Below, piece after piece: positions 2,729-57,025 of a DNA stretch of 64,000 nucleotides. This stretch comes from an uncultured Bacteroidota bacterium (GTDB lineage: Bacteria; Bacteroidota; Bacteroidia; UBA4408), in contig CAIKXD010000028.1 of the NCBI GenBank assembly GCA_903831265.1, forward strand, positions 9,414 through 73,413. The letters are read 5' to 3'. The notes beneath the pieces are model-generated. The model worked only from the letters and a program-made list of their open reading frames with translations, ran no database searches and had not been told where the DNA came from. Each line of letters opens with the position of its first letter. The first letter of the stretch is position 1. Made by a program: the position numbers and the translations under genes.

Positions 2729-5700
2729 TTATTTAATAATTATTTTCTTTGTTACTAATGAATTATTTGATTGAATTTTAACCATGTAGATTCCTTGAGC
2801 TAAAGAAGGCAATTCTACAGTTGAAATTCCTTTACTTAAATTAACACCTTGTTGCATTAATAGCTTACCTGACATATCGAACAATACAACATCAGAAGCT
2901 GCTGCATCACCGTTATTGATAATACTTAATGACTCATTGTTATTAAAGAAATCAACATCATTTAAACTTACTTCGCTATCAGATAAAGCTACTTCACTAT
3001 TTTCGTAGTTTAAGTAAAATCTGTTGTTGTAAATAGAATTTGATAAAGCCACGCTGTATTTTGCACCAGTCTTTAATTTAACTTTTTTGTTGGCTTCAAC
3101 GTCTACCAAGTAAGCATTCAAATTGTTTTCAGTATTAGAAAATTCGGCCACGCTGAAAGTATAAATACCATCAACCTTAGCAATTAAATGCAATGGAATA
3201 CTTCTAGAAGGAATTAGATTTTCGAATGCCTTAATAGCAAGAATTCTGTTGTCTATAACCATACCTAACTCAGGGTGAGTTTCAGTTGGGTTATTCATCA
3301 TTTTAGCCATATCAATTTCTGGGTTGTAGTTTTCTGTACCGCCATTAACAGTACCAATTGCTAACTGATCAACACCATCTTGATTTTGAACATTTAACTT
3401 AACAATATTTTTAACAACTGCATCTCTATTGAAAGATGGCGAGTTAGAGCCATGTCTGATAGTGTTATCAGTAATTAAAGTACCACCAGCAGGAGTGCTT
3501 GTAGTAATTGCTACAGCTTGAGATGTAAAAATAGTATCAGTCATACCAAAAGTACTTAAGCCTGGAGCAGCACCGTTATAAAAACCGTAACCACTATTTG
3601 CAGCCGACCATCCATAGTATCCATTTTGCAAACTCACCTGACCTGGTAAATTTCTTAAAACCGAAAATCTAATTGGAGATGGATAAGGATTACCAATGAT
3701 ATGAAATCCACCATTTGTAGCAGGAAGTACATTTGACAATGGGCCATTATTTGCAGGACCAGTTACATCAAGTGTTCTTGCTAAAGAATTATGCAAAGTA
3801 GCAGAATATCCTACCAATGAATTTGATATTGGCTGACCAACCGCACTTTCCCAAGGAGTTACAGGAAGCGTGTTAGCTTCGTCATATGTCCAAATAGTTG
3901 GTGCATTTGGAGGCGCTGGAAGAGCCACGTTAGTTGCATAAGTATAAGGAAATAAACCTTGAACAACATAATCATCACCCCAAGCAGTTGTTGTAGTTAA
4001 GCCAGAAACTGGGCAAGAAATATATCTTGTTTTTGCTGGTGTAGCAGTAAGATATCTTTCTACAGTAACATTACCAGTTACGTTTGCAGTACCTGCACCA
4101 CTAATAATTCCTTGTCTTGTTGGGTTTGAAGATAATATCAAAAATCCATTACTATTTAAAGTTCCGTCAGTTACTGTAACAGTTCCTAAAACTTTCAAAG
4201 TTGATAAAAGCGTTGAAGTTGTAGAAGGCGTATTAATAGTTAAGTTATTAATAAAGCCATTGTTTTTTAAATTACCAACTGAACCAGAACCTGTAAAGTT
4301 AAAATTAGCATCAGTACCGAAAGAGCTAAATGATCCAGTACCAGTAATTGTCCCAGAAAAGTTAGCTGTTAAAGCAGCAGCGCCAAATTTATAACTAGCA
4401 GAACCAACCAAGTTTAAATTTACAAAACTGATATTTTTTTGTACAGTTAAAGTAACACCTGTTGAAACAGTAACAGCACCTAAAGGCAAGCTTAATAAGC
4501 TAATTGCTCCAGTTCCTGTACCACCAATTGTTCCACTACTTAAGAAGTTGATGTTACCGCTACCAGCAGTAATTGATAATGGATTATTTGAGTTATTAGT
4601 AATACCACCAGTTAAGTTTATTGCAGATGAACCAGTTCCATTTACAGTGAATTGACCAGTTGATGAAATTGTTAAACTAGTCATTGAAAGTGCGCCTGTT
4701 AAAGAAGTTGTAATAGAGGCACCAATAGTTAAGTTTCTGTATGTTCTTCCATTTACTTCAAAGCCATTAACAGTGTTAAATGTTTGGTTACTTCCTGGTC
4801 TAAATTCAACTGCACTTAAAGGTGCAAATTTTTGGAAAGGATTTTCACCACCATTATGAATGTAACTTGCTCCTGTTTCGAATTGAACTGAATTAGTTAT
4901 TGCAGTTGGACCACCAAAAGCAGCACCCAAGTAACTAACACCTGTAGTAAAAGAAGATCCAGTTTTAAATTTAACTGCACCAGCCACACTACCAATAATA
5001 CTTGAACCTGTATTTGAAATAACAGCACCAAAAATATTTGCAGTAGCATTTCCAACAAGTTTTATTGCTGAACCAACACCACCATTAATAGTTAAAGTTG
5101 AACCTGCATCTACTCTAAAATCATCGGAAGTTAATGAGTTACCATTAACTAATAATGAACTAGCGCCATCAATAAATAACGTAACGTTAGAATTATTTTG
5201 TATTTGTAGTGTACCTATAGTTTGTGCAGGTACATTGTCAATTACAGAAACTGAAGAAACTGTAGCACCAATAACTAATCTATCGTCAGCAGAAGGATTT
5301 GTTCTTGATGGTGTCCAATTTGCTGCTGTATTATAGTTGAATGGACCAGCACCAGCTTGATTCCAATTATATACAGTACCAGTATTAGAGGTAATTTGAC
5401 TTGCATTAGCTGTTGAAGAAATAAAATAGTTTTCACCTCCTGCAGCACCGTTATATTCAATGGCTCTAAAGTGATAAGTAGTATTTGGAGTTAAACCAGT
5501 TACTGTAACCACATTTCCTGTGCCATTGTTATTATAAACAACCCAATTACCTGATCCTAATTGATCACCTAAAGAGATAGCTGAATTAGCTACGTAGGTA
5601 GTTGCATCAGTTGGGTTAGTGTTTACTAAGCTACCTGATTTGATAAGCAATAATCTTTTAGCACCATTTCCACCACTCAAATTTACTTGAATTGAATTAG

Positions 5701-6586
5701 AAGAAACCGAACCAAAAGTAATAGTACCATTTGAAGTTGGCTCACCACCTAAAGTAACACCTAAATCACCTTTTAAACTAGGAATTGAAAGTTCAGCACC
5801 TGTAGGATTTAAAGCTACATAATTTCTAACTATAGTTCCAGCATCATTAGTGATTTGCAAATTTAACTCATAATGTACAGTTCCAGTAGTAGTTACCTGA
5901 CCTAAAAATACTCTGTTTGTACTTGTTGGCCCTGACATACCTGCAGTTCCTGAAGCAGCTAATACCGCAATTGAACCATTAGATAAGATAAAACTTCCAC
6001 TAGCTTGACTAACATCGCCAAAAACATTATTGATTGCCAATAAAGTTGCAGCATCAGCAGCAATTTGAACATCTTGTAAAGTACCATTAGTAAATCCATC
6101 TCTAGTGTTAAGTGTAGCACCTATAGAAGGGTCATTGTTTAACAATAAACCATTTGCATTTACTACAGTTCCAACGCCATTATCTTCTGTTTTCAAAATA
6201 CCTACTTGCGAAGTAGCTGGGTTGTTATTGTTAGTAGTAGCACCAATTGATAAATATGAATCAAGCATTACTGTATTATCAGCAGCTTGCGCTTTTGTCC
6301 AATTTGGTATTGAAGCACCTCTATCTGTATTATTGAAAAAGGTACTAGAGCTAACAAACTTTAGATCATGACCTGAAGTACCATAAACAGCTTGTAATTT
6401 AAAGCCAGTTGAAAGATCTGCAAAGAATCTATACGTAACAGATCCAACCGGTAAAGTACCCGCACTTCCTGCTGCATCAGCTGCATTAGAAACGTAGTAC
6501 TTCTCAACGATTATATTCTCTAACCCTTGCGCAAAGGAAAAACTCCCTGTTGCAACAAGCATTAGCATGATTAGTATTTTTTTCAT
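2729..6586 (-). CDS. Giant (1285 aa) T/S/N/G-rich secreted surface protein, T9SS cargo, with the conserved N-terminal 'VEKYY' paralog domain
   Basis: Signal peptide MKKILIMLMLVATGSFSFAQ. The N-terminal ~270 aa align with the 367/368/457-aa paralogs (IIVEKYY...LPVGSVTYR...NTVMLDSYLS...GILKTEDNG...TNRV...LN). A long low-complexity beta-rich body follows. The C-terminal T9SS sorting domain is ...LAQGIYMVKIQSNNSLVTKKIIIK. Confidence 0.85.
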   Translation of the reverse strand: MKKILIMLMLVATGSFSFAQGLENIIVEKYYVSNAADAAGSAGTLPVGSVTYRFFADLSTGFKLQAVYGTSGHDLKFVSSSTFFNNTDRGASIPNWTKAQAADNTVMLDSYLSIGATTNNNNPATSQVGILKTEDNGVGTVVNANGLLLNNDPSIGATLNTRDGFTNGTLQDVQIAADAATLLAINNVFGDVSQASGSFILSNGSIAVLAASGTAGMSGPTSTNRVFLGQVTTTGTVHYELNLQITNDAGTIVRNYVALNPTGAELSIPSLKGDLGVTLGGEPTSNGTITFGSVSSNSIQVNLSGGNGAKRLLLIKSGSLVNTNPTDATTYVANSAISLGDQLGSGNWVVYNNNGTGNVVTVTGLTPNTTYHFRAIEYNGAAGGENYFISSTANASQITSNTGTVYNWNQAGAGPFNYNTAANWTPSRTNPSADDRLVIGATVSSVSVIDNVPAQTIGTLQIQNNSNVTLFIDGASSLLVNGNSLTSDDFRVDAGSTLTINGGVGSAIKLVGNATANIFGAVISNTGSSIIGSVAGAVKFKTGSSFTTGVSYLGAAFGGPTAITNSVQFETGASYIHNGGENPFQKFAPLSAVEFRPGSNQTFNTVNGFEVNGRTYRNLTIGASITTSLTGALSMTSLTISSTGQFTVNGTGSSAINLTGGITNNSNNPLSITAGSGNINFLSSGTIGGTGTGAISLLSLPLGAVTVSTGVTLTVQKNISFVNLNLVGSASYKFGAAALTANFSGTITGTGSFSSFGTDANFNFTGSGSVGNLKNNGFINNLTINTPSTTSTLLSTLKVLGTVTVTDGTLNSNGFLILSSNPTRQGIISGAGTANVTGNVTVERYLTATPAKTRYISCPVSGLTTTTAWGDDYVVQGLFPYTYATNVALPAPPNAPTIWTYDEANTLPVTPWESAVGQPISNSLVGYSATLHNSLARTLDVTGPANNGPLSNVLPATNGGFHIIGNPYPSPIRFSVLRNLPGQVSLQNGYYGWSAANSGYGFYNGAAPGLSTFGMTDTIFTSQAVAITTSTPAGGTLITDNTIRHGSNSPSFNRDAVVKNIVKLNVQNQDGVDQLAIGTVNGGTENYNPEIDMAKMMNNPTETHPELGMVIDNRILAIKAFENLIPSRSIPLHLIAKVDGIYTFSVAEFSNTENNLNAYLVDVEANKKVKLKTGAKYSVALSNSIYNNRFYLNYENSEVALSDSEVSLNDVDFFNNNESLSIINNGDAAASDVVLFDMSGKLLMQQGVNLSKGISTVELPSLAQGIYMVKIQSNNSLVTKKIIIK

Positions 6587-6616
6587 ATTAATATTTTATT
6601 AAAATTATTGTAATAA

Positions 6617-8284
6617 TTAATCGCAAGATTGATTGAATTCTCCTAATAATTGAAGGAAATCTGCATTGTTTGTAACACCATCGGTATTTACATCGGTAGG
6701 GCAAGCAACAATACCTGAAGTAGCTGCAACTATATTTAAAATAGCCCAATCAGATAACCATGATTTTTTACCTGGCTCAAATGCACCTCTGTAATTTGCA
6801 GCTGTATAAAAACCATCAACTGGAGCAGCACATGTAGTAGCAACTAAATCTGGAACAGCGTCATATTTATCAGTTACAGCATTAGTAGCATAATCCATTA
6901 CATAAGTATAGTCGAAATTTGGCAAAGAAGCTACTGAAGTATTATTATCAGTTGTAAACTTTGTGTTATCTAATGCTAATGTACCGTATGTATATACAGA
7001 GTTGTTTTCTATTGCCAATGGAATTGAGCAATTTACAAAAGTATTACATTTAATTTGTAGTGTTCCGCTTGTTGCAAAACCTGCTTGCCAGTTACCATAA
7101 GCTTCGTTTGAACCATCTGATGTGTTTGCTGGAGGTCTGCTGTTTTTGATTTTATCAATAACAACACCTCTTTCATAGTTTGCAACGATGCAATTATAAA
7201 CTTCACCTTCTGTTCTTTCTTTAAAATTAAAACCAGCATCGCCAGAGTTATCAGCAGTAGCAGCACTTTGTGGTCTACCGATAAATGTTCCATTATATAA
7301 TTTTGGATGTGATCTTGGTGTAAGATTTGTAGTGTTATCATCACCATCAGCTTCAATACCATTATCAGTTAAAGTGTTACCACCATTATGTCTGTTTAGG
7401 TTAAAGAAAAATTGCACTTTACCAGTCCAACCTAAATCCCAGTCTAAAGCATCATCATCACCCCAATAAGTAGCGATATATTTTAAATTTACATTTCCAC
7501 CAAATAATTCGATACCGTCATCTGCAAAAGAGGTTACTTCAATATGATCAATAGTTGTACCTTGACCAACTGAACATAAAGTTAATGAATTTAACTCGTT
7601 ACCTGCTGCAATAATATCTCCAGCATGTCTGATAGAAATGTATCTCATGATACCTGAATTATCGTTAGCATCAGATCCACCATACCATGTTCTAGCATCT
7701 AACTCAGCATTTGAAATACCTTCTGGAGCACCTGTTCCATCTGGCTGACCTGCCACTTGTAAACCTGAAGCATTTGCAGAAGTTAAGTTGTTTGGTGCTT
7801 TACCACAAACTAAAATACCACCCCATTTACCACCATTTACACCACCTGCATTGTTATTGTAGTTACCAAGAATGTTATCGCTTGTAATATCTTCTTCAGC
7901 AGTAAAAACAATTTGACAAGTTGGTGAACCTGCTGCAATTATTTGACCACCTCTTTCAATAACTAAAGCTGATGCTTGACCACCACCTGGGTTATTTAAA
8001 TCGCGACCTAAAATAACGGTACCTGGATTAATAGTAATTGTTTTGTTGTTTGGTACGTAAATTTTTTCTTTAATCAAGTAATTGTTGTTGCAAGTTAATA
8101 CTGTATTTACAGCATTTAACTCCCCAAGAGTTGCCAATGTTGACAAGTCAACTGTTGGACGTGTGTTTACCGGAGGACAACCGCAATCAGCCCCCAAATT
8201 GTTTTGATTTTGCGCCTCGCTGCTTGTAGTTGCAAGGGTTAAAACAGCCGCTAGGCTAAGTAATTTTGATACTGTTTTTTTCAT
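6617..8284 (-). CDS. Secreted 555-aa protein, paralog of 17446..19122, from an unnamed TonB-dependent-receptor-associated family; dockerin-like C-terminus
   Basis: It has a signal peptide. Blocks shared with the 558-aa paralog include NSG.(M/L)RY.SIRH.G..IA.GNELN.LTL..VG..TTI...E...DDGIE(L/F)FGG.VN.KY...DD..DWD..WTGK.QF. The C-terminus TDVNTDGVTNNADFLQLLGEF resembles a single dockerin/EF-hand loop rather than a T9SS C-terminal sorting domain. Confidence 0.8.
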   Translation of the reverse strand: MKKTVSKLLSLAAVLTLATTSSEAQNQNNLGADCGCPPVNTRPTVDLSTLATLGELNAVNTVLTCNNNYLIKEKIYVPNNKTITINPGTVILGRDLNNPGGGQASALVIERGGQIIAAGSPTCQIVFTAEEDITSDNILGNYNNNAGGVNGGKWGGILVCGKAPNNLTSANASGLQVAGQPDGTGAPEGISNAELDARTWYGGSDANDNSGIMRYISIRHAGDIIAAGNELNSLTLCSVGQGTTIDHIEVTSFADDGIELFGGNVNLKYIATYWGDDDALDWDLGWTGKVQFFFNLNRHNGGNTLTDNGIEADGDDNTTNLTPRSHPKLYNGTFIGRPQSAATADNSGDAGFNFKERTEGEVYNCIVANYERGVVIDKIKNSRPPANTSDGSNEAYGNWQAGFATSGTLQIKCNTFVNCSIPLAIENNSVYTYGTLALDNTKFTTDNNTSVASLPNFDYTYVMDYATNAVTDKYDAVPDLVATTCAAPVDGFYTAANYRGAFEPGKKSWLSDWAILNIVAATSGIVACPTDVNTDGVTNNADFLQLLGEFNQSCD

Positions 8285-19211: not shown

Positions 19212-22200
19212 ATGAAAAATTACTGCTTTAAATCACTTTTATTTACATTCTTTTTACTGCAAATTAGTGCACATGTTTACTCACAAAACGGAAATATATC
19301 TGGTAAAATAATTGACAAATTAACCGGTGAAGAAATCATTGGAGCTGTTGTAAAAATAGACAGCACAAATACTGCTACTTCAACTGATTTAAGTGGCAAC
19401 TACAATTTAAAAGTACCCGCAGGCAACCATACAATTGTATGCAACTTTATAAGTTACAGAAAAATTATTGTAAAAAATGTATCAGTTAAAGCAGGAGAAA
19501 GCATCACACTTGATTTTACTTTAGAATCTGATAATGTAGAAATTAAAGAAGTAGTAATTGAAGCTGTGCAACAAAGAAACACAGATGCATCTTTAATCTC
19601 CATTCAAAAAAAATCATTCGCTGTGCAAGATGGTATTTCGGCACAACAAATGGCACGCACGGGCAGCAGCAATGCTGCAGAATCAATGAAACAAATGACT
19701 GGCGCCAATGTAGAAGATGGCAAATTTATGGTAATGCGCGGGCTAGGCGATAGATATTCTATTGCACAATTAAACGGACTTCCAATTCCAAGTAGTGACC
19801 CTTATCGCAATGCATCTAGTTTAGATTTAATTCCTTCATCATTTGTTGACAATATTGTTACCACAAAAACCTTTACGCCAGATCAACCGGGCAATTTTGC
19901 AGGAGGAAATTTAAATATTAGCACTAAAAGTTTTCCTGAAAAACCTTATGTAACTGTAAACATTTCACAATCAATGAATACGCTTTCTTCTATGAATGGC
20001 GATTTTCTTAGTTATCAAGGTGGAAGCACAGACTGGAGAGGAGTTGATGATGATACTAGAAAAGTACCTTTGATTGCTTTAAATGATTCGATCAGAGATA
20101 TGATTAATTCAAGTTTATACCTTGATGCACGCAAAAAAAGCAAAGACTTTGAAATAGAAAGACAACTGTTTAATAGCTCGGCTAAAGTTTTTAGCAATGA
20201 ATTTATTGCAGAAAAAACTGGTGAAGCAAATAACGAAAGCGGTGTGGGATATCAATTAAGGCAAGCATTTGGTTTAAATAATAATTATAATAAAACCCCC
20301 TTAAACAACAACTACAGCCTTGCAGCTGGACAAAGGTATGTGATTGGAAAAACCGAAATTGGGATGACAATTGGAGGAAATTATCAAAGAAATTTTACAC
20401 ATTATAACGATGGAGAAATAAATACCTTCATCAACACCAATACCGAAAAATTATTTGCGTACCAAGCACTTAAAGAAACTAAAAGTATTGATAATCCTCA
20501 ACTTGGAGGACTAGCTAATTTAGCAGTAAAGATTGCTAAAAAACACACAATCGGTATAACTGGTATTTACAGCAATGATGCAGAAAAAGTTGCACGTCAG
20601 CAATCTGGTACTTTTATGGGACAAGTATCAGATTCACGCGCTCAATTTAATACCAATGTATTAGAATTTACACAAAGAGAATTAAAGACACTTGTTGTTA
20701 ATGGAAGCCACAGTTTTAAACTATTAAATGGTTTAGATATCGATTGGTCGGCAAGTAATACCAATACACGCCAATACGAGCCAGATTTGCGTTATTTTGC
20801 TTATACCTCTGTTAAAGATACTGCCGATTCGGTTGGTGCAAATGGTGATTTAGTAAGATACCTCGATACTGCTTATTACATGAACAATGCTGAGTTTGCA
20901 TTTCCATATCACTTTTATAGAGATTTAAAAGATAGTCAACAACAAGCAAAAATTGATTTTACATTAAACATTAATAAGTCGCAAAGCTTTAAAATAAAGT
21001 GGGGTGGATATTACAGTTCAACTAAAAGAAAATTCGAGGAGTATCGCTTTCAAATGAACAACTCGGGCATTCAATCTTCACAAAAGTTATTGTTAGATAA
21101 TTACAATGGCGATTTAAATGCATTTTTAGATAGTGATAATTTTGGCATTACCGATACAACTAGAAACTCGCAAGGTGCTATCACAAGATATGCTACAGGC
21201 TGGCATTACATCAATCAAGTTAACAACAGAAACTTTTATACGGGCCAACAAGATATTACTGCAGCCTACGCCATGACAGTATTTTCACCACTTAAAAATT
21301 TAAAAATAATTACAGGTGCGCGCATCGAAAGTACCAACTTAAATGTAGCAAGCCGCGATACAAATGCCATATTTTATTCAATTAATGGCGATAGTATTAT
21401 CGATCCAGGTAAGCTAAAATTATTAGATCTTTTACCATCTATAAATACTGTTTATGCTTTAACCGAAAAATCTAACTTAAGATTGGCATTTAGTCAAACA
21501 ATTGCACGTCCAAACATGAGAGAATTAGCTCCTTTCGAGCAGTTTGATACAAAAAATGGTTTTTACAACGTGGGTAATCCAGGCTTAAAAAGAACCTTAA
21601 TTAATAACTTCGATATTCGTTATGAGTTTTACACACGTCCTGGAGAAATAATTGCCGTAAGTGCTTACTATAAAACCTTTAAAGATCCTATCATTAGAGC
21701 ATTTAATCCTAAGGCAACTATACCAGAGCTTAGCTTTGTAAATGTTGATAAAGCAGAAGTATTAGGTGCCGAATTCGAATTCAGAAAAAGCTTAGATTTT
21801 ATTTCCCCTTTCTTGCACGATTTTTACATAAATACCAACTTAACTTTAATCAATTCTCGTGTTGATATTCCAGTAAAAGAAATTGAAAATTCTAAAAATG
21901 TTGACTCAACTTATGCTGTAGAAAGCCGCCCGTTTCAAGGACAAGCGCCTTACATTGTAAATGCTATTTTAACCTATGCCAATCCTAAAATTGGTCACGA
22001 AAGTTCACTATCATTCAACGTATCTGGACCAAAATTATACAGCATTTCATTATTTGCCACGCCCGATATTTATGAATCACCAGTGCCATTTTTAAATTTT
22101 AAAACCACTCAAAATGTGGGTAAATACTGGCAATTTTCGCTAGTTATGCGCAATTTATTAAACGCAAAAGTGTCTAAAACGCAAGTTTACCGTGGCCAAA

Positions 22201-22268
22201 CCTATTATGCCGAAACATTTCAAATTGGAAGAACATTTGGCTTAGGAGTAAGCTTTAAAATCAAATAA
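19212..22268 (+). CDS. TonB-dependent outer-membrane receptor (1018 aa) with an N-terminal CarboxypepD_reg-like domain
   Basis: Signal peptide, then GKIIDKLTGEEIIGAVVKIDST...TDLSGNYNL. A plug region follows (MKQMTGANVEDGKFMVMRGLGDRYS...LNGLPIP) and then a C-terminal barrel (...GRTFGLGVSFKIK). It is a paralog of 10962..14021. Confidence 0.9.
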   Translation: MKNYCFKSLLFTFFLLQISAHVYSQNGNISGKIIDKLTGEEIIGAVVKIDSTNTATSTDLSGNYNLKVPAGNHTIVCNFISYRKIIVKNVSVKAGESITLDFTLESDNVEIKEVVIEAVQQRNTDASLISIQKKSFAVQDGISAQQMARTGSSNAAESMKQMTGANVEDGKFMVMRGLGDRYSIAQLNGLPIPSSDPYRNASSLDLIPSSFVDNIVTTKTFTPDQPGNFAGGNLNISTKSFPEKPYVTVNISQSMNTLSSMNGDFLSYQGGSTDWRGVDDDTRKVPLIALNDSIRDMINSSLYLDARKKSKDFEIERQLFNSSAKVFSNEFIAEKTGEANNESGVGYQLRQAFGLNNNYNKTPLNNNYSLAAGQRYVIGKTEIGMTIGGNYQRNFTHYNDGEINTFINTNTEKLFAYQALKETKSIDNPQLGGLANLAVKIAKKHTIGITGIYSNDAEKVARQQSGTFMGQVSDSRAQFNTNVLEFTQRELKTLVVNGSHSFKLLNGLDIDWSASNTNTRQYEPDLRYFAYTSVKDTADSVGANGDLVRYLDTAYYMNNAEFAFPYHFYRDLKDSQQQAKIDFTLNINKSQSFKIKWGGYYSSTKRKFEEYRFQMNNSGIQSSQKLLLDNYNGDLNAFLDSDNFGITDTTRNSQGAITRYATGWHYINQVNNRNFYTGQQDITAAYAMTVFSPLKNLKIITGARIESTNLNVASRDTNAIFYSINGDSIIDPGKLKLLDLLPSINTVYALTEKSNLRLAFSQTIARPNMRELAPFEQFDTKNGFYNVGNPGLKRTLINNFDIRYEFYTRPGEIIAVSAYYKTFKDPIIRAFNPKATIPELSFVNVDKAEVLGAEFEFRKSLDFISPFLHDFYINTNLTLINSRVDIPVKEIENSKNVDSTYAVESRPFQGQAPYIVNAILTYANPKIGHESSLSFNVSGPKLYSISLFATPDIYESPVPFLNFKTTQNVGKYWQFSLVMRNLLNAKVSKTQVYRGQTYYAETFQIGRTFGLGVSFKIK

Positions 22269-22282
22269 ATTAGTTTCCCCAA

Positions 22283-22365
22283 CCTGAGCAAAGCTAAAGA
22301 GGGCAATCCCATCGCTTTGCTCAGGGCCGGGCCATCCGCGCTACACGGTAGCTTGCTCCTGTCCC
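22283..22365 (+). repeat. GC-rich structured intergenic element, copy A (hairpin plus conserved tail); second copy at 48775..48855
   Basis: The inverted repeat is cctgagcaaagc-N19-gctttgctcagg, followed by gccgggccatccgcgctacacggtagcttgctcctgtccc. This is ~70% identical to the tail of copy B and shares the tgagcaaagc arm. It is a GC island in AT-rich DNA just downstream of the receptor gene. Confidence 0.5.
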
Positions 22366-22779
22366 TATTGCAAATCAATTAACACAACACAATAAATATT
22401 CTGGCGCGAGTCATCTGAGACTTGTGCCTATTCAAATTATACCAGCACAAGTCTTCAGGCTCATATACCCATTACATTTTCAATTTAGTCCAATTGCGGC
22501 CAAGCCTTATTGTACTAGTTTCAAGTTGTATCGGCATTAACCATTGTAAATTTATTAAACAGCTTTGGGCTATTTAATAAATACAATCGGTATTATACCA
22601 TTACTTGCGTAAAATTAGTCCAATCCGTTTCTTCTACAATGCACATAGAGTAGCTCTTATGGCGTAATTCATTGAACTATTTCAGTAAACACATAGGTAT
22701 TAATTTGCAATTAAAAAAATAGACCTAATTTATTCCCTAATTTTTAGTATTTTTGAGAATCAAAACTTATTTAACCCAA

Positions 22780-24024
22780 ATGAAAAAAATATTTACACTA
22801 GTATTGCTAGCATTAGCATTTGAAAATTCAAATGCACAAAATTGTATCGAAAACACCAATAGCATTAGCTTTGATGGTTTTAGCACGAGTGCTACATCTA
22901 GCAGTCAAAGCAACCTGAATATTACCGATTCCATTACTGTAGAAGCATGGATCAATCCAAATTCCTTTGGCTTTAATTCGGCTCAAAACTCTATTGTTTG
23001 CAAACACGGATGGAGCAGTGGCGAAGGTGGCTTTGTATTACGCTGTGGTGGTTCTGGTGAATTAGCTTTTAATATTGCTGGCCTTGATATCAATCAAAAT
23101 CCAACAAGTTGGAAAGAAGTATTTACACCAACTAACGCTTTAACACTTAATACCTGGACTCATGTTGCTGGTTCATACGATGGTCAAAATTTAAGGGTGT
23201 TTGTTAATGGTGTTGAACAAAATATTGCACCTTTTGCAGGAAGTATTGCAAATTCGCAAAATTATCCAATAACCTTAGGCAAACTAAGCGACCCTAACCA
23301 GTTTGCTCAACGCTTCTTCGATGGAAAAATGGATGAAGTACGCATTTGGCACCGTGCGCTAACAGCCAATGAATTAATGGCTAATATGAATAAACATATT
23401 GATCCTACAACAGCAGTTAACTTAGTTTCTTATTGGCGTTTTAATGAAGGTACAGGAAATACTAGTATTGACTTACAAAGTACAAACGATTTAACCGTTA
23501 ATGGTAATAATTGGGATATTTCGGTTCCTTTTAATCAAGTTCCTCCTACCCCTGTAATTTCTTTTAATGGCTTTGAATTAATTGCATCAACCACAGGTGG
23601 AAATTGGTATTTAAATGGCAACATAATTCCTAATGCTATTGATAGCAATTATACACCTGCAGTAAATGGTGATTATACTTTTACAACCAATCCAAATAGC
23701 GATGGATGCACCAATACTAGTTTAATTTACACTCTAACAAGTGTGGGTATGCAAAATCTAAATTTCAATATCACGGCAAATGTTTTCCCTAATCCAATAA
23801 TAGATGAAGCAACACTTGCAGTAAATTCAAATGTAATATTAAACAATAGCATTTTGGTTATTACCGATATCGCAGGTCGAAAAGTTTATGCTGAAAATAC
23901 CGCTTTAAAACAAGGCTTAAATCAAGTAAAGATTTCCAAAAACAACTTAAATTCAGGCGTCTATTTTTACGAAATTTTAAATAATAGCCAAAGTTTAACC
24001 AAAGGCAAATTGATGTTAAAATAA
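22780..24024 (+). CDS. LamG-like (concanavalin A-like lectin/glucanase) jellyroll domain protein, T9SS cargo
   Basis: Laminin_G_3-type motifs are present: ITDSITVEAWINPNSF, NTWTHVAGSYDGQNLRVFVNGVEQ, GKMDEVRIWHRALTANEL. The T9SS C-terminal domain is VFPNPIIDEATL...GVYFYEILNNSQSLTKGKLMLK. The likely start is MKKIF at 22780; the ORF opens at 22753. Confidence 0.8.
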   Translation: MKKIFTLVLLALAFENSNAQNCIENTNSISFDGFSTSATSSSQSNLNITDSITVEAWINPNSFGFNSAQNSIVCKHGWSSGEGGFVLRCGGSGELAFNIAGLDINQNPTSWKEVFTPTNALTLNTWTHVAGSYDGQNLRVFVNGVEQNIAPFAGSIANSQNYPITLGKLSDPNQFAQRFFDGKMDEVRIWHRALTANELMANMNKHIDPTTAVNLVSYWRFNEGTGNTSIDLQSTNDLTVNGNNWDISVPFNQVPPTPVISFNGFELIASTTGGNWYLNGNIIPNAIDSNYTPAVNGDYTFTTNPNSDGCTNTSLIYTLTSVGMQNLNFNITANVFPNPIIDEATLAVNSNVILNNSILVITDIAGRKVYAENTALKQGLNQVKISKNNLNSGVYFYEILNNSQSLTKGKLMLK

Positions 24025-24082: not shown

Positions 24083-24241
24083 CCTTACATAGGGTTTTAC
24101 TTTTTATACCAATGTAATACCAATTGCATTAATTTTTTAGTCCAACTAAAAATAAATTTGCAATGTTTAATGTCAATACTATTTGGAATTAGCACAATAA
24201 GGCTTTAATACAATTCGTCTAAGTTGAAAGTGTAATCGGCA

Positions 24242-26230
24242 TTACATCTCAAAAACTTTCTTCCACACCGCAAAAGCAATAAACTTAAAAGTTCTGGTAT
24301 CATCAGGACCCAAATTATTACTAAACATTTGATCAAAATCGCGGTTTATTTTGTGCATATCAAAGTAATCTTTTAAACTATCATCAAAATATGGGCGCAC
24401 CGCATCTTTTATATTTTTAATCCATTGCGAGTTAGGGGTGGCAAAACCCATTTTATCTTTTCTGTTTAAAATAATATCGGGTACCACACCTCGCATCGAT
24501 TCGCGCAGTATGTGCTTGTTAACTCCATTTTTTATTTTGTAAGATGAAGGCAATTGAAAAGCATATTCAATTAAATTTATATCATCGGCAAAGGGTGTGC
24601 GCGACTCTACGCTATGCCACATACTACAACGGTCTTCGCACTTTAAATAAGCTTTTAAACGTGTATTGGTAAATTCCTGCATCAACATTTTATTGAGATT
24701 TTTTGGCACAGGTTCGCTTTGCAAACGATTTTTATTTTCGTTTAAAAATTGCGAATTTAAATAATATAAATCGCCAAAATAATTTCTATTTATTTGGTAC
24801 TGCACAAAGGCAGGTAACCTACGAATGGTAGAAAAACGCAAATGTTGTTTAGCAAAAAAGCTGTAGCGTAAATGCCAAGGCAAAAAACCTTTCATTTCAC
24901 TGTGTAATTTACCAAATTTAAATTGCTTTAAAATTTCGGCCCAATAGTTATACATGTAGCTGTGATAGCCACCAAACAATTCATCTCCACCTTGGCCATC
25001 TAAAACTACTTTAACACCTGCTTCTTTGGCCTTTTGCATTACTCTGTATTGCGCATAAGTACTGGTGCTCCAAATAGGTACATCCTGACAATAAATTAAA
25101 TTTTCAAGATCGCTAACTAATTCATCAGAATTAGGAAAAACACGGTAAAAAGCGCTATTAGTTTGCTCTGCCACGCGCGCTGCAAATGGACTTTCATCAA
25201 TAGTAATATCATTAAAAGAGGCGGTAAACAAGTTAATTTTTTCTTTAACACCACTTTCTTTATTTAAATTATCCATCAACGAAACAATGGCGCTACTATC
25301 AATTCCTCCACTCAAACATGCACCCACACTAACATCGGCTCTAAGGCGGAGTTTTACGGCATTGATTAGAAGCTCAGCTACCCGATCTTTTGCTACAATA
25401 AATTTTTCTTCTTCATAACTTTCATACCTGGCATTTGTTTCTAAAACATAATATCTATCAACATTAAAGTTACCCGTATTTACATGCAATTCAAAACTAT
25501 GTGCTGGAAAAAGTTCATTAATGTGTTTAAAAAAACTCAATGTTTCATATTCTATTTCACCTTTTACGAAGTAGTCGTAAACGGCTTCTTGCCTTATGCC
25601 TGTTTGTATGAATGGCATTTTTACTAAAGCTTTTTGCTCTGAGGCAAAGGCAAAAACATCTTTATCTTTATAGTAATAAAATGGCTTAACTCCAAAGCGA
25701 TCGCGTGCGCCAAAAAGTATATTTTTTGTTTTGTCGAAAATTACAAAAGCCCACATTCCATTGAACTTCTGTAAGCATTTTTTACCCCAAACTTTATAGG
25801 CAAAAAGTACCACTTCGGTATCGCTTTCTGATTTAAAAATACAACCTTTATCTTGGAGTTCTTTTCTAATTTCAATGTAGTTGTATATCTCGCCATTAAA
25901 GGTAATCCACAAATTGCCCTCATCAATACACATAGGTTGATGCCCGCTTGCATTTAAATCAATAATCGAAAGTCTGCGATGAAGCAACACCATATCGTAA
26001 GCCTCATTAGCTTCATTAATATTAATCTGCGAAGCGTAATCTAATTGATTTTGAATACATGCTTGTGGGGTATCATTACCAAAGGCTGTTGTTGTTTTTT
26101 GTTGGTGATGCAATAAATAGCCTTCACCATCAGGTCCACGGTGCGCAATCAATTTATTTAATAAAATAGCCGATGATTTGATATCATTTACTTGCTTATT
26201 AAATCTTACTATGCCGCCAATACCACACAT
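24242..26230 (-). CDS. Asparagine synthase (glutamine-hydrolysing) family amidotransferase
   Basis: The N-terminal MCGIGG matches the Ntn glutaminase Cys2. The protein is 662 aa and carries a PP-loop SGGIDSS. Its end is 2 nt from the stop of an adjacent flippase-like gene. Confidence 0.85.
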   Translation of the reverse strand: MCGIGGIVRFNKQVNDIKSSAILLNKLIAHRGPDGEGYLLHHQQKTTTAFGNDTPQACIQNQLDYASQININEANEAYDMVLLHRRLSIIDLNASGHQPMCIDEGNLWITFNGEIYNYIEIRKELQDKGCIFKSESDTEVVLFAYKVWGKKCLQKFNGMWAFVIFDKTKNILFGARDRFGVKPFYYYKDKDVFAFASEQKALVKMPFIQTGIRQEAVYDYFVKGEIEYETLSFFKHINELFPAHSFELHVNTGNFNVDRYYVLETNARYESYEEEKFIVAKDRVAELLINAVKLRLRADVSVGACLSGGIDSSAIVSLMDNLNKESGVKEKINLFTASFNDITIDESPFAARVAEQTNSAFYRVFPNSDELVSDLENLIYCQDVPIWSTSTYAQYRVMQKAKEAGVKVVLDGQGGDELFGGYHSYMYNYWAEILKQFKFGKLHSEMKGFLPWHLRYSFFAKQHLRFSTIRRLPAFVQYQINRNYFGDLYYLNSQFLNENKNRLQSEPVPKNLNKMLMQEFTNTRLKAYLKCEDRCSMWHSVESRTPFADDINLIEYAFQLPSSYKIKNGVNKHILRESMRGVVPDIILNRKDKMGFATPNSQWIKNIKDAVRPYFDDSLKDYFDMHKINRDFDQMFSNNLGPDDTRTFKFIAFAVWKKVFEM

Positions 26231-48694: not shown

Positions 48695-48774
48695 TTAGCA
48701 AATTAGCTGATTAAATTAATGTGCCAATTTTATAATTTATTAGCGTTTTTTAATTAAGTATTTTTAGGGCAAAC

Positions 48775-48855
48775 CCTTTCGTTATTTGAGCAAAGCCTTG
48801 CTCAAATAACGAAAGGTCGGGCTGTGCGCGGTACAAGGTACCTTGCTTCCATCCC
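48775..48855 (+). repeat. GC-rich structured intergenic element, copy B (19-bp perfect hairpin plus conserved tail)
   Basis: The hairpin is cctttcgttatttgagcaa-agcc-ttgctcaaataacgaaagg, followed by tcgggctgtgcgcggtacaaggtaccttgcttccatccc. This tail is homologous to that of copy A and contains a nested palindrome caaggtaccttg. Confidence 0.5.
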
Positions 48856-49029
48856 TTTTGCATAGGTGTAGTGTTAAAATGAAACAACTGCCTATTTCCA
48901 AGGCTTTAGCTGCAAACTAGTTAATTAAACCCCAACATTTTAACAGTTGGCGCTAACACTAAAGGTTTAATTAGCGTACTATTAAAGAAAGTACTAATTT
49001 AGCTATATCAAAATGGTGATTTTTTAACA

Positions 49030-56494: not shown

Positions 56495-57025
56495 TTATAG
56501 GGTATTATTATCGTTTTTAAACCAAGTGCTGTACATTAAATAATTGTTGGCAATACGCTGCACTTCGCCTTTAAATAGTTCTTCGCTTAATTGTTTTACT
56601 TTTTTTGCAGGAATACCAGCATAAACAGAACCTGCCTCAACCACTGTATTTTCGAGTACTACTGCACCCGCGGCTATAATACAATTTTCATGTATAACAA
56701 CATTATCCATAATGATAGCACCCATGCCAATGAGCACATTATCATGCACGGTGCAACCATGCACAATGGCATTATGCCCAATGGAAACATTATTGCCTAA
56801 TACCACTTTTGTTTTTTGATAGGTGCAATGAATGACAGCACCATCCTGTACGTTTACTTTATTGCCCATGGTAATGCTATTTACATCGCCTCTTACCACG
56901 GCATTGAACCAAAAGCTACAATCATTTCCCGCAACTACTTGGCCCACAATGGTGGCGTTAGGTGCAATAAAACAATTTTCACCAAACTGCGGGCTAACGC
57001 CATTTACAGGTAAAATAACACTCAT
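56495..57025 (-). CDS. Gamma-carbonic anhydrase family / hexapeptide-repeat (YrdA/PaaY-like) protein
   Basis: It is a left-handed beta-helix hexapeptide repeat protein (FIAPNATIVGQV..G..CSFWFNAVVRGDVN.I..G...NVQDGAVIH). The protein is 176 aa. Confidence 0.85.
   Translation of the reverse strand: MSVILPVNGVSPQFGENCFIAPNATIVGQVVAGNDCSFWFNAVVRGDVNSITMGNKVNVQDGAVIHCTYQKTKVVLGNNVSIGHNAIVHGCTVHDNVLIGMGAIIMDNVVIHENCIIAAGAVVLENTVVEAGSVYAGIPAKKVKQLSEELFKGEVQRIANNYLMYSTWFKNDNNTL

Follow-up and report, generated by a model that had tools for sequence, protein, structure and literature searches.

The DNA analysed here, referred to as the window, is a 64,000-nucleotide stretch of contig CAIKXD010000028.1 from an uncultured Bacteroidota bacterium. 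It contains a 484-bp non-coding gap (22269-22752) between a TonB-dependent receptor gene and a gene whose LamG-domain product carries a type IX secretion sorting tail. An original prediction, made from the letters of the window, described a GC-rich structured block directly behind the receptor gene and suggested either a small RNA or an element resembling repetitive extragenic palindromes (REPs) or MITEs (miniature inverted-repeat transposable elements), with possible regulatory sites for the LamG gene in the rest of the gap. All of the features it described were found, at or near the places it gave for them. We conclude that the block is a copy of a phylum-wide family of structured extragenic repeats in Bacteroidota, read here as a short variant of the Flavo-1 motif (Rfam RF01705), and that it is probably REP-like in its action. 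The genes and repeat copies concerned are the following.

19212-22268, plus strand: TonB-dependent receptor gene from the open reading frame (ORF) call; the gap begins at the next base.
22301-22371, read on the plus strand: copy A of the short Flavo-1-type repeat, scoring 65.3 bits (E = 1.4e-14) with covariance model R1 and matching the exact tail pattern; in the orientation of Rfam Flavo-1 it lies on the minus strand.
Parts of copy A: GG; P1 5' strand GCAAT (22303-22307); P2 (22309-22327); P3 (22329-22365); T; P1 3' strand ATTGC (22367-22371).
22340-22352: inner hairpin of P3 in copy A, GCTAC-ACG-GTAGC.
48767-48861: copy B of the same repeat, made up of GGGCAAA, a 19-bp P2 hairpin, TC, P3 (48819-48855), T and TTTGC; 65.6 bits with R1.
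22753-24024, downstream of the gap: LamG-domain gene, with an ATG at 22781.

GC content reaches 60% at 22280-22359 against about 21-49% in adjoining 80-nt windows, as expected of the GC island that had been described. The tail said to be shared with a second element is also real. The pattern GGGC N4 CGCG N TACA N GGTA N CTTGCT N C N3 CCC has two exact matches in the window (22329-22365 and 48819-48855), 0 of 100 shuffles contain a match, and copies A and B are identical in 75% of aligned columns. The initial search pattern was built from these two copies, and the same tail was found in viral contigs. A pattern scan of one genome per species then gave at least 118 loci; these and the other loci examined are referred to below by L numbers. 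Nearly all are from Bacteroidota, with Flavobacteriaceae, Chitinophagaceae-like metagenome-assembled genomes (MAGs), Cyclobacteriaceae and Ekhidna among the matches listed. The few matches in GC-rich coding DNA of other phyla were set aside as chance, and loci L006-L009, likewise chance matches, were left out of the analysis. Bacteroidota genomes contain no fewer than 110 different copies of this family.

Typical copies with Bacteroidota-like flanks also occur in MAGs labelled Saccharibacteria (L016, L024, L085, L062) and Dehalococcoidia (L069). Contamination during binning is the most likely source of copies in MAGs of other phyla, and transfer a less likely one. In five IMG/VR contigs labelled viral (L001-L005), one and the same conserved gene ends no more than about 20 nt from the repeat; it spans 392-556 aa in fragments and has no Pfam match.

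Ninety-eight unique copies parse into one common frame, in the order lead-in TTWGG, P1, P2, a two-base linker, P3, a T, and the 3' strand of P1. P1 is a 5-bp closing stem, most commonly GCGTT/AACGC. P2 is a hairpin free in sequence and length, its segment usually starting with CC and ending with GG. P3 is a conserved 37-nt hairpin (GGGC-NN-NN-CGCG-NNNC-ANG-GNNN-CTTGCT-NC-NN-TCCC) with three fixed pyrimidine-pyrimidine mismatches, which are purine-purine on the other strand, and a 5-bp/3-nt tip. A covariance model (R1) built from thirteen ungapped copies detected exactly two copies in the window, A and B, and 114 matches in 779 kb of loci. A weak third match in the window (56955-57002) falls inside a hexapeptide-transferase gene and was rejected as chance.

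Base pairing within this frame is strongly maintained. In the alignment fitted to R1, 98.4% of cells are paired, 18 of 20 pairs covary and 279 double-sided changes were counted. These values are reached in 0 of 500 shuffles, and slid partners pair in 33-48% of cases. P1, P2 and the 3' half of P3 are absent from the search pattern. Among the pattern-free pairs (4-32, 5-31, 12-22, 13-21 and 14-20), a single non-pair occurs in 490 cells, and pairs 12-22, 13-21 and 14-20 have zero mismatches across 98 copies. The inner hairpin of P3 varies among CTAC/GTAG, GTAC/GTAC, CTGC/GCAG, GTGC/GCAC and TTAC/GTAA, with Watson-Crick pairing kept in all. Copy B folded as DNA gives the family structure exactly on both strands (z = -6.1 and -7.8).

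Variation on the frame is modular. Several genomes, not all, have one P3 tip variant common to every copy, and elsewhere the frame of copies A and B also carries other P3 tips and an optional arm of about 47 nt. This arm was observed in L019, L023, L037 and L078 (about 45-55 nt after CTTGCTNCAA), where it includes a small stem, TTCAC..GTGAAGTA, and sits in the P3 3' strand before ATCCC. Readings of these four copies as 3' truncations or as insertions of another element were rejected in favour of a ~47-nt extra arm inside P3. Members of the copy A subfamily occur at unrelated loci in related genomes. The repeated unit is longer in such relatives: three of them (L060 3309-3335, L096 3625-3650 and L098 1060-1086) have about 25 nt conserved downstream (AAATGTTCTAAG..A..AC.CTCA), and a ATTGGCACATTG motif recurs upstream of the copies in L082 (minus strand), L083 and L096; the window copy has neither.

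The Rfam scan proposed with the original prediction returned no family match. At the gathering threshold (42 bits for Flavo-1) there is no relevant match in the window, and at E <= 10 no Flavo-1 match appears in 22200-22800 or in L013 500-800, which holds a canonical copy. However, Rfam Flavo-1 sites were found in three of the collected loci (L016, L112 and L127), and on the opposite strand all three have the same lead-in, P1, variable P2, linker and P3 base as our repeat. R1 matches the L016 site at 33.6 bits. The Rfam model spans only the long hairpin, equivalent to P3, and leaves P1 and P2 outside. On the Rfam strand the base of that hairpin reads GGG-A-UU-GAA-GC ... GC-GGA-AA-G-CCC, with purine-rich internal loops, and the reverse complement of the family-consensus P3, GGGAUUGAAGC...GCGGAAAGCCC, has this same Flavo-1 hairpin base. 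The window copies are covarying variants of it, in which the distal Flavo-1 hairpin (AAUCC-UUUU...AAAA-GAUUG) and terminal stem are replaced by a mini-hairpin, GCUAC-CGU-GUAGC. Like Flavo-1, the short repeat is present in many copies in Bacteroidota. Because the P1/P2 frame and the P3 base are common to all three Rfam sites, we read the GC-rich block as one short form within a modular Flavo-1 superfamily, a form which the Rfam model misses. It is new as a variant but not new altogether. In L016, genes for an IS1595-family transposase (4907-5866) and an HNH endonuclease (6589-6945) lie between a short-type copy and a classical Flavo-1 copy, the two copies being inverted relative to each other.

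Stem cells across the family comprise 2030 Watson-Crick pairs, 21 G-T and 14 A-C. G-T is as rare as A-C, so the constraint is on complementarity itself, with no preferred strand. Orientation relative to genes is similarly balanced: of the copies flanked by tandem genes, 29 point the same way as the genes and 22 the other way (p = 0.40), and a further 12 copies lie between divergent and 9 between convergent genes; these statistics leave out 35 copies, of which 23 overlap a called ORF and 12 have no neighbour on one side. Position is not balanced. Tandem-gene copies are closer to the preceding stop codon than to the next start in 39 of 51 cases (p = 0.0002), at median distances of 6 nt and 28 nt for the two orientations, and the TTWGG lead-in itself often supplies a TAG or TAA stop codon. 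Family flanks are T-rich before the element and A-rich after it.

The repeat was also observed at two positions in trp operons of different genera. It lies directly behind a trpE-like gene, inside the operon, in L025 (3409-3470) and L064 (475-536), and directly behind a trpB-like gene, with the lead-in forming the TAG stop, in L030 (6658-6718), L050 (3418-3488) and L074 (3481-3552). The trpB position is occupied in three genera.

Orthologous sites show a mixed fate. Receptor orthologues in L132, L131 and L133 (91%, 89% and 87% protein identity) all have the element at the copy A site. In L133 it is recognisable at 49 bits, but L131 and L132 have decayed versions, the one in L132 scoring 13.9 bits and containing a 15-nt insertion. 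Copy B lies between a photolyase gene, which it follows, and an ECF sigma-factor gene; its orthologue in L134 (photolyase 85% identical) reaches 53 bits. Six pair changes separate the two, all fully compensated, with three each in P3 and in the P2 peculiar to this copy, and there are zero uncompensated stem changes. Where orthologous pairs are more diverged, conservation is mostly higher in the element than in the adjoining non-coding flank. As judged from these comparisons, selection on the fold maintains some copies, and others are allowed to decay.

These same observations bear on an explanation in which the repeat works in cis as an RNA element of the upstream gene, serving either for factor-dependent termination or to stabilise the 3' end, and in which it is immobile and selected site by site. 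The position of copies next to stop codons, the compensatory changes made in place at copy B, including those in its own P2, the conservation above flanks and the retention behind trpB in three genera all agree with it. Yet no U-tract follows the element, and one of its positions is within an operon, between trpE and trpG, a place where strong termination would do harm. Twelve copies lie between divergent genes, the copy A site has decayed in two relatives, and a simple hairpin would not require a near-invariant P3 sequence throughout a phylum. We regard this explanation as unlikely, although it overlaps with the functional half of the REP-like reading.

How copies spread bears on a second alternative, that the family is a classical REP mobilised by a REP-associated tyrosine transposase (RAYT, a Y1 HUH transposase), a Bacteroidota counterpart of the Escherichia coli REPs and bacterial interspersed mosaic elements (BIMEs). 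Extragenic, structured, multi-copy repeats whose constraint is compatible with DNA are what such a system would produce, and RAYT subclasses with 'atypical' repeats exist in Bacteroidetes (PMC6006769). Two close inverted pairs resemble REP doublets forming hairpins (REPINs): L052 5121-5181(+)/5239-5298(-), 58 nt apart, and L086 5168-5228(+)/5383-5443(-), 155 nt apart. The GT[AG]G foot of REPs is absent, however, with the lead-in TTWGG and foot GCGTT in its place, and REPs are not normally conserved in sequence over a whole phylum. A motif scan found no Y1 motif in the window or next to any copy, and no Y1 transposase gene flanked by inverted copies of the element occurs in ~0.8 Mb of loci plus the window. 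In L050 (1548-2099) and L074 (1608-2162), a transposase gene of the Y1 class (IS200-like, RAYT-type) lies upstream of the trpB-like gene, with its own palindromes, AGACCTCACAGGTTTTGAAAACCTGTGAGGTCT, on both sides, and forms a distinct REP-like system in those genomes. The genes enclosed by inverted copies in L016, L070 and L109 (IS1595 transposase, HNH protein and ordinary genes) have no enzyme in common and were discarded as candidates. Mobilisation by a classical RAYT thus appears quite doubtful.

A small trans-acting RNA gene, as Rfam types Flavo-1 ('Gene; sRNA'), seems less probable still. Flavo-1 has been an orphan motif since 2010 and is among the most abundant listed 'sRNA' families. 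It was discovered computationally and listed as likely RNA, not cis-regulatory (Weinberg et al. 2010, PMC2864571). The conserved and covarying structure is consistent with that rating, and the purine-rich GAA/GGA internal loops on the Rfam strand resemble RNA motifs. Against it stand the many copies per genome, each with a free P2, their occurrence in both orientations adjoining stop codons, and G-T wobble no commoner than A-C mismatch. Scans revealed no promoter-like or terminator-like sites, and one orthologous site, that of copy A, has decayed. Flavo-1 sites in Flavobacterium psychrophilum are sense, antisense or outside transcribed regions (PMC9723704). A REP-like structural repeat fits better than a small RNA gene, and of the two options first offered for the block, the REP/MITE-like one stood and the small RNA was not borne out. 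A reading as two chance terminator hairpins with chance direct repeats (TTAGTCCAAT) can draw on the chance-level frequency of one-mismatch TTAGTCCAAT and on copy A alone folding like shuffled sequence, but it is ruled out by two tail-pattern matches against none expected, by the many homologous, covarying copies and by direct repeats lying within a repeat that has a 97.6% identical copy elsewhere.

From a constraint equal on both strands we infer that the fold is required in DNA that is single-stranded or extruded, or else in transcripts whichever way they are read. Copies accumulate directly behind stop codons in either orientation, where they would most likely act, by analogy with REP/BIME, through at least one of three roles: stably structuring the 3' end of messages, forming a barrier between transcription units, or offering a binding site for a conserved protein. 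New copies probably arise through a trans-acting enzyme, as suggested by the tip variant common within several genomes and by the presence of a subfamily at unrelated loci. After insertion, some copies would be kept by selection and others would decay. Copy number is two in the 64-kb window, and one MAG has copies on at least five contigs. A more specific version, in which Flavo-1 and its variants, instead of being small RNA genes, form a modular, phylum-wide, strand-symmetric gene-boundary signal for 3'-end formation or insulation, set right after stop codons, maintained by compensatory change and read through the invariant P3 by a conserved Bacteroidota protein, is speculative and on balance improbable.

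Several observations weigh against the REP-like reading and must be taken with it. Folded alone, copy A does not surpass shuffled sequence (z = 0.14), the search pattern accounts in part for the fixed letters of P3, and the gene-position statistics rest on crude ORF calls. The A-rich, not T-rich, sequence after the element means that it is not a canonical terminator. Clustering of 769 ORFs showed no enriched protein family beside copies, and decay of the copy A site in L131 and L132 means that not every copy is needed. The mobility half is the weakest part of the explanation, since neither an enzyme, an empty site nor a target duplication was found. No mobilising enzyme turned up in ~0.8 Mb of loci and the window. 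The Y1 gene of L050 and L074, the only Y1 family in the loci, was rejected because its flanking repeats differ from the element, and the published repeats of Bacteroidetes RAYT subclass 2.6 (PMC6006769 supplementary table) include no P3-like sequence. At the copy sites compared, neither an empty site nor a target duplication was seen: L131-L134 carry the element, the L135 neighbourhood is rearranged, and L129 and L130, from the same strain as the window, are uninformative. Since copies are retained at orthologous sites in different species, mobility can at best be slow. The GC-rich element itself lacks the terminal inverted repeats and target-site duplication of a MITE, having only the 5-bp P1 and flanks without duplication, and literature searches for strings of the P3 core gave nothing relevant.

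The remainder of the gap is composed of other features, listed here with a related copy beyond the LamG gene.

22283-22294, plus strand: upstream arm (CCTGAGCAAAGC) of a 12-bp stem, 100% complementary to 22314-22325 inside the P2 segment of the element.
22415-22458, plus strand: second hairpin, with a ~13-bp stem, a 10-bp perfect core and a 17-nt loop; RNA fold z = -5.1.
22464-22597, plus strand: MITE-like repeat of ~134 nt with inverted ends (TA)TACCCATTAC... and ...CAATCGGTAT(TA), its ends set by a five-copy alignment.
22594-22626, plus strand: partial tandem copy of the 5' end of the MITE-like repeat, about 31 nt (TATACCATTAC..AAATTAGTCCAAT), holding the second TTAGTCCAAT.
24111-24245, minus strand: diverged inverted MITE-like copy, about 75% identity, on the far side of the LamG gene.

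The arms of the 12-bp stem are fully complementary, as had been claimed, but the extent first given for copy A (22283-22365) needs correcting, as the conserved element occupies 22301-22371. The upstream arm, which had been counted as part of it, lies outside. It is not conserved at the orthologous sites in L131, L132 and L133, and the subfamily relatives L060, L082, L083, L096 and L098 have the P2 segment in common with copy A and lack the arm. The stem is thus local to the lineage, and because it encloses the P1 5' strand it competes with the family fold.

Exactly two copies of TTAGTCCAAT occur in the window, at 22485 and 22615, confirming the pair of direct repeats that had been reported; their spacing is 130 nt and not the ~125 nt first given. 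With one mismatch allowed, 10 were found against 7.5 expected, which is no excess over chance, so the pair is meaningful only through its context. The first copy lies in the 5' part of the MITE-like repeat, and the second lies in the partial tandem copy, whose local alignment score against the 5' end is 26 compared with 17.9 +/- 2.8 for shuffled sequence (7 of 500 shuffles as high). The 134-nt repeat has the terminal inverted repeats, short size and copies at unrelated loci that define a MITE, with TA flanks read by eye. L040 has a copy with 97.6% identity at a locus unrelated to this one, and others occur in L060 and L096. L040 and L131 belong to one MAG (GCA_945872355.1), and the receptor protein of L131 reaches only 89% identity; this difference in identity suggests recent activity or transfer of the repeat. 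The direct repeats had been put forward as regulatory sites for the LamG gene. They are instead pieces of the MITE-like repeat, nothing marks them as regulatory, and the gap is therefore an assembly of several genomic repeats and not a private regulatory site.

The inverted MITE-like copies at 22464-22597 and 24111-24245 bracket the LamG gene, a type IX secretion cargo gene. Among the four sites compared, a LamG gene follows the receptor only in the window and in L132 (7090-8334). Its place is taken by an OmpA-family gene in L131 (6558-6804) and an acetyltransferase gene in L133 (6558-6793), and the region downstream of the receptor is a variable spot.

The second hairpin, present where it had been reported, has no other copy in the window and recurs in no locus other than L129 and L130, the contigs of the same strain. 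The corresponding spot in L132 is occupied by a 10-bp hairpin unrelated to it. No T-run follows the hairpin, which may be a transcript-end structure of the receptor gene. ARAGORN identified no tRNA or tmRNA gene in the window, a search for tandem repeats found none, a promoter scan gave nothing above chance and a terminator scan found no such sites in 22000-23000. The promoter consensus of Bacteroidota already differs from the standard bacterial one, the -7 consensus of Bacteroidetes being TAnnTTTG. By eye, TATTTTTG at 22748-22755 fits this consensus about 25 nt upstream of the LamG ATG, and on this basis the final 60 nt of the gap, outside the repeats, are the probable site of the LamG promoter.

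For annotation of the window, these results imply that the 484-bp gap is repeat DNA and not a bespoke regulatory region. More broadly, the Rfam Flavo-1 model is incomplete, covering one module of a larger three-helix frame, and annotation pipelines relying on it miss a common short form. Covariation restricted to Watson-Crick pairs, both orientations and placement at stop codons point away from a small RNA gene, and the covariance model together with about 110 distinct copies makes the Flavo-1 question testable. Should the gene-boundary reading be true, it would represent a new kind of gene-boundary signal in Bacteroidota.

The two repeats of the gap resemble several known systems to different degrees. 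The 134-nt repeat is comparable to MITEs of the IS630/Tc1-mariner type in its ~11-bp terminal inverted repeats flanked by TA, its size of ~130 bp and its near-identical copies at unrelated loci in related genomes. It differs in having no identified partner transposase, and its TA duplication is a by-eye reading of five copies. The Flavo-1-type repeat shares with intrinsic (Rho-independent) terminators a GC-rich hairpin that closely follows a stop codon, but it lacks the T-run that would come next, and a simple terminator needs no conserved sequence. With sites that act as folded single-strand DNA, namely integron attC and the ends of IS200/IS605 elements together with their derivatives, the palindrome-associated transposable elements (PATEs), it shares structure kept in part over sequence, fixed unpaired or mismatched bases and, as expected of a DNA fold, rare wobble pairs. 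Correctly ordered attC core sites are missing from it, its surroundings contain neither integrase nor TnpA, and its two hairpins are unalike whereas IS200/IS605 ends resemble each other. Like REP/BIME and REPINs, it is short, structured, extragenic and multi-copy, lies behind genes and within operons in both orientations, has mostly lineage-specific variants and forms occasional close inverted pairs. Unlike REPs, it has three helices in place of one imperfect palindrome and no GT[AG]G foot, its P3 is nearly invariant across a phylum, and a cognate RAYT was not found in the loci examined. Compared with Flavo-1, the distal two thirds of the hairpin are reduced to a 5-bp/3-nt mini-hairpin, Rfam gives no match even at E <= 10, and the Rfam type 'Gene; sRNA' is one that the present evidence fails to support. 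Nonetheless, the two occupy the same phylum and the same genomes (L016, L112 and L127), and P1 GCGTT/AACGC, a variable P2 and a GA/TC linker are found at all three Rfam sites. What emerges is no new system but an orphan motif family enlarged and reframed.

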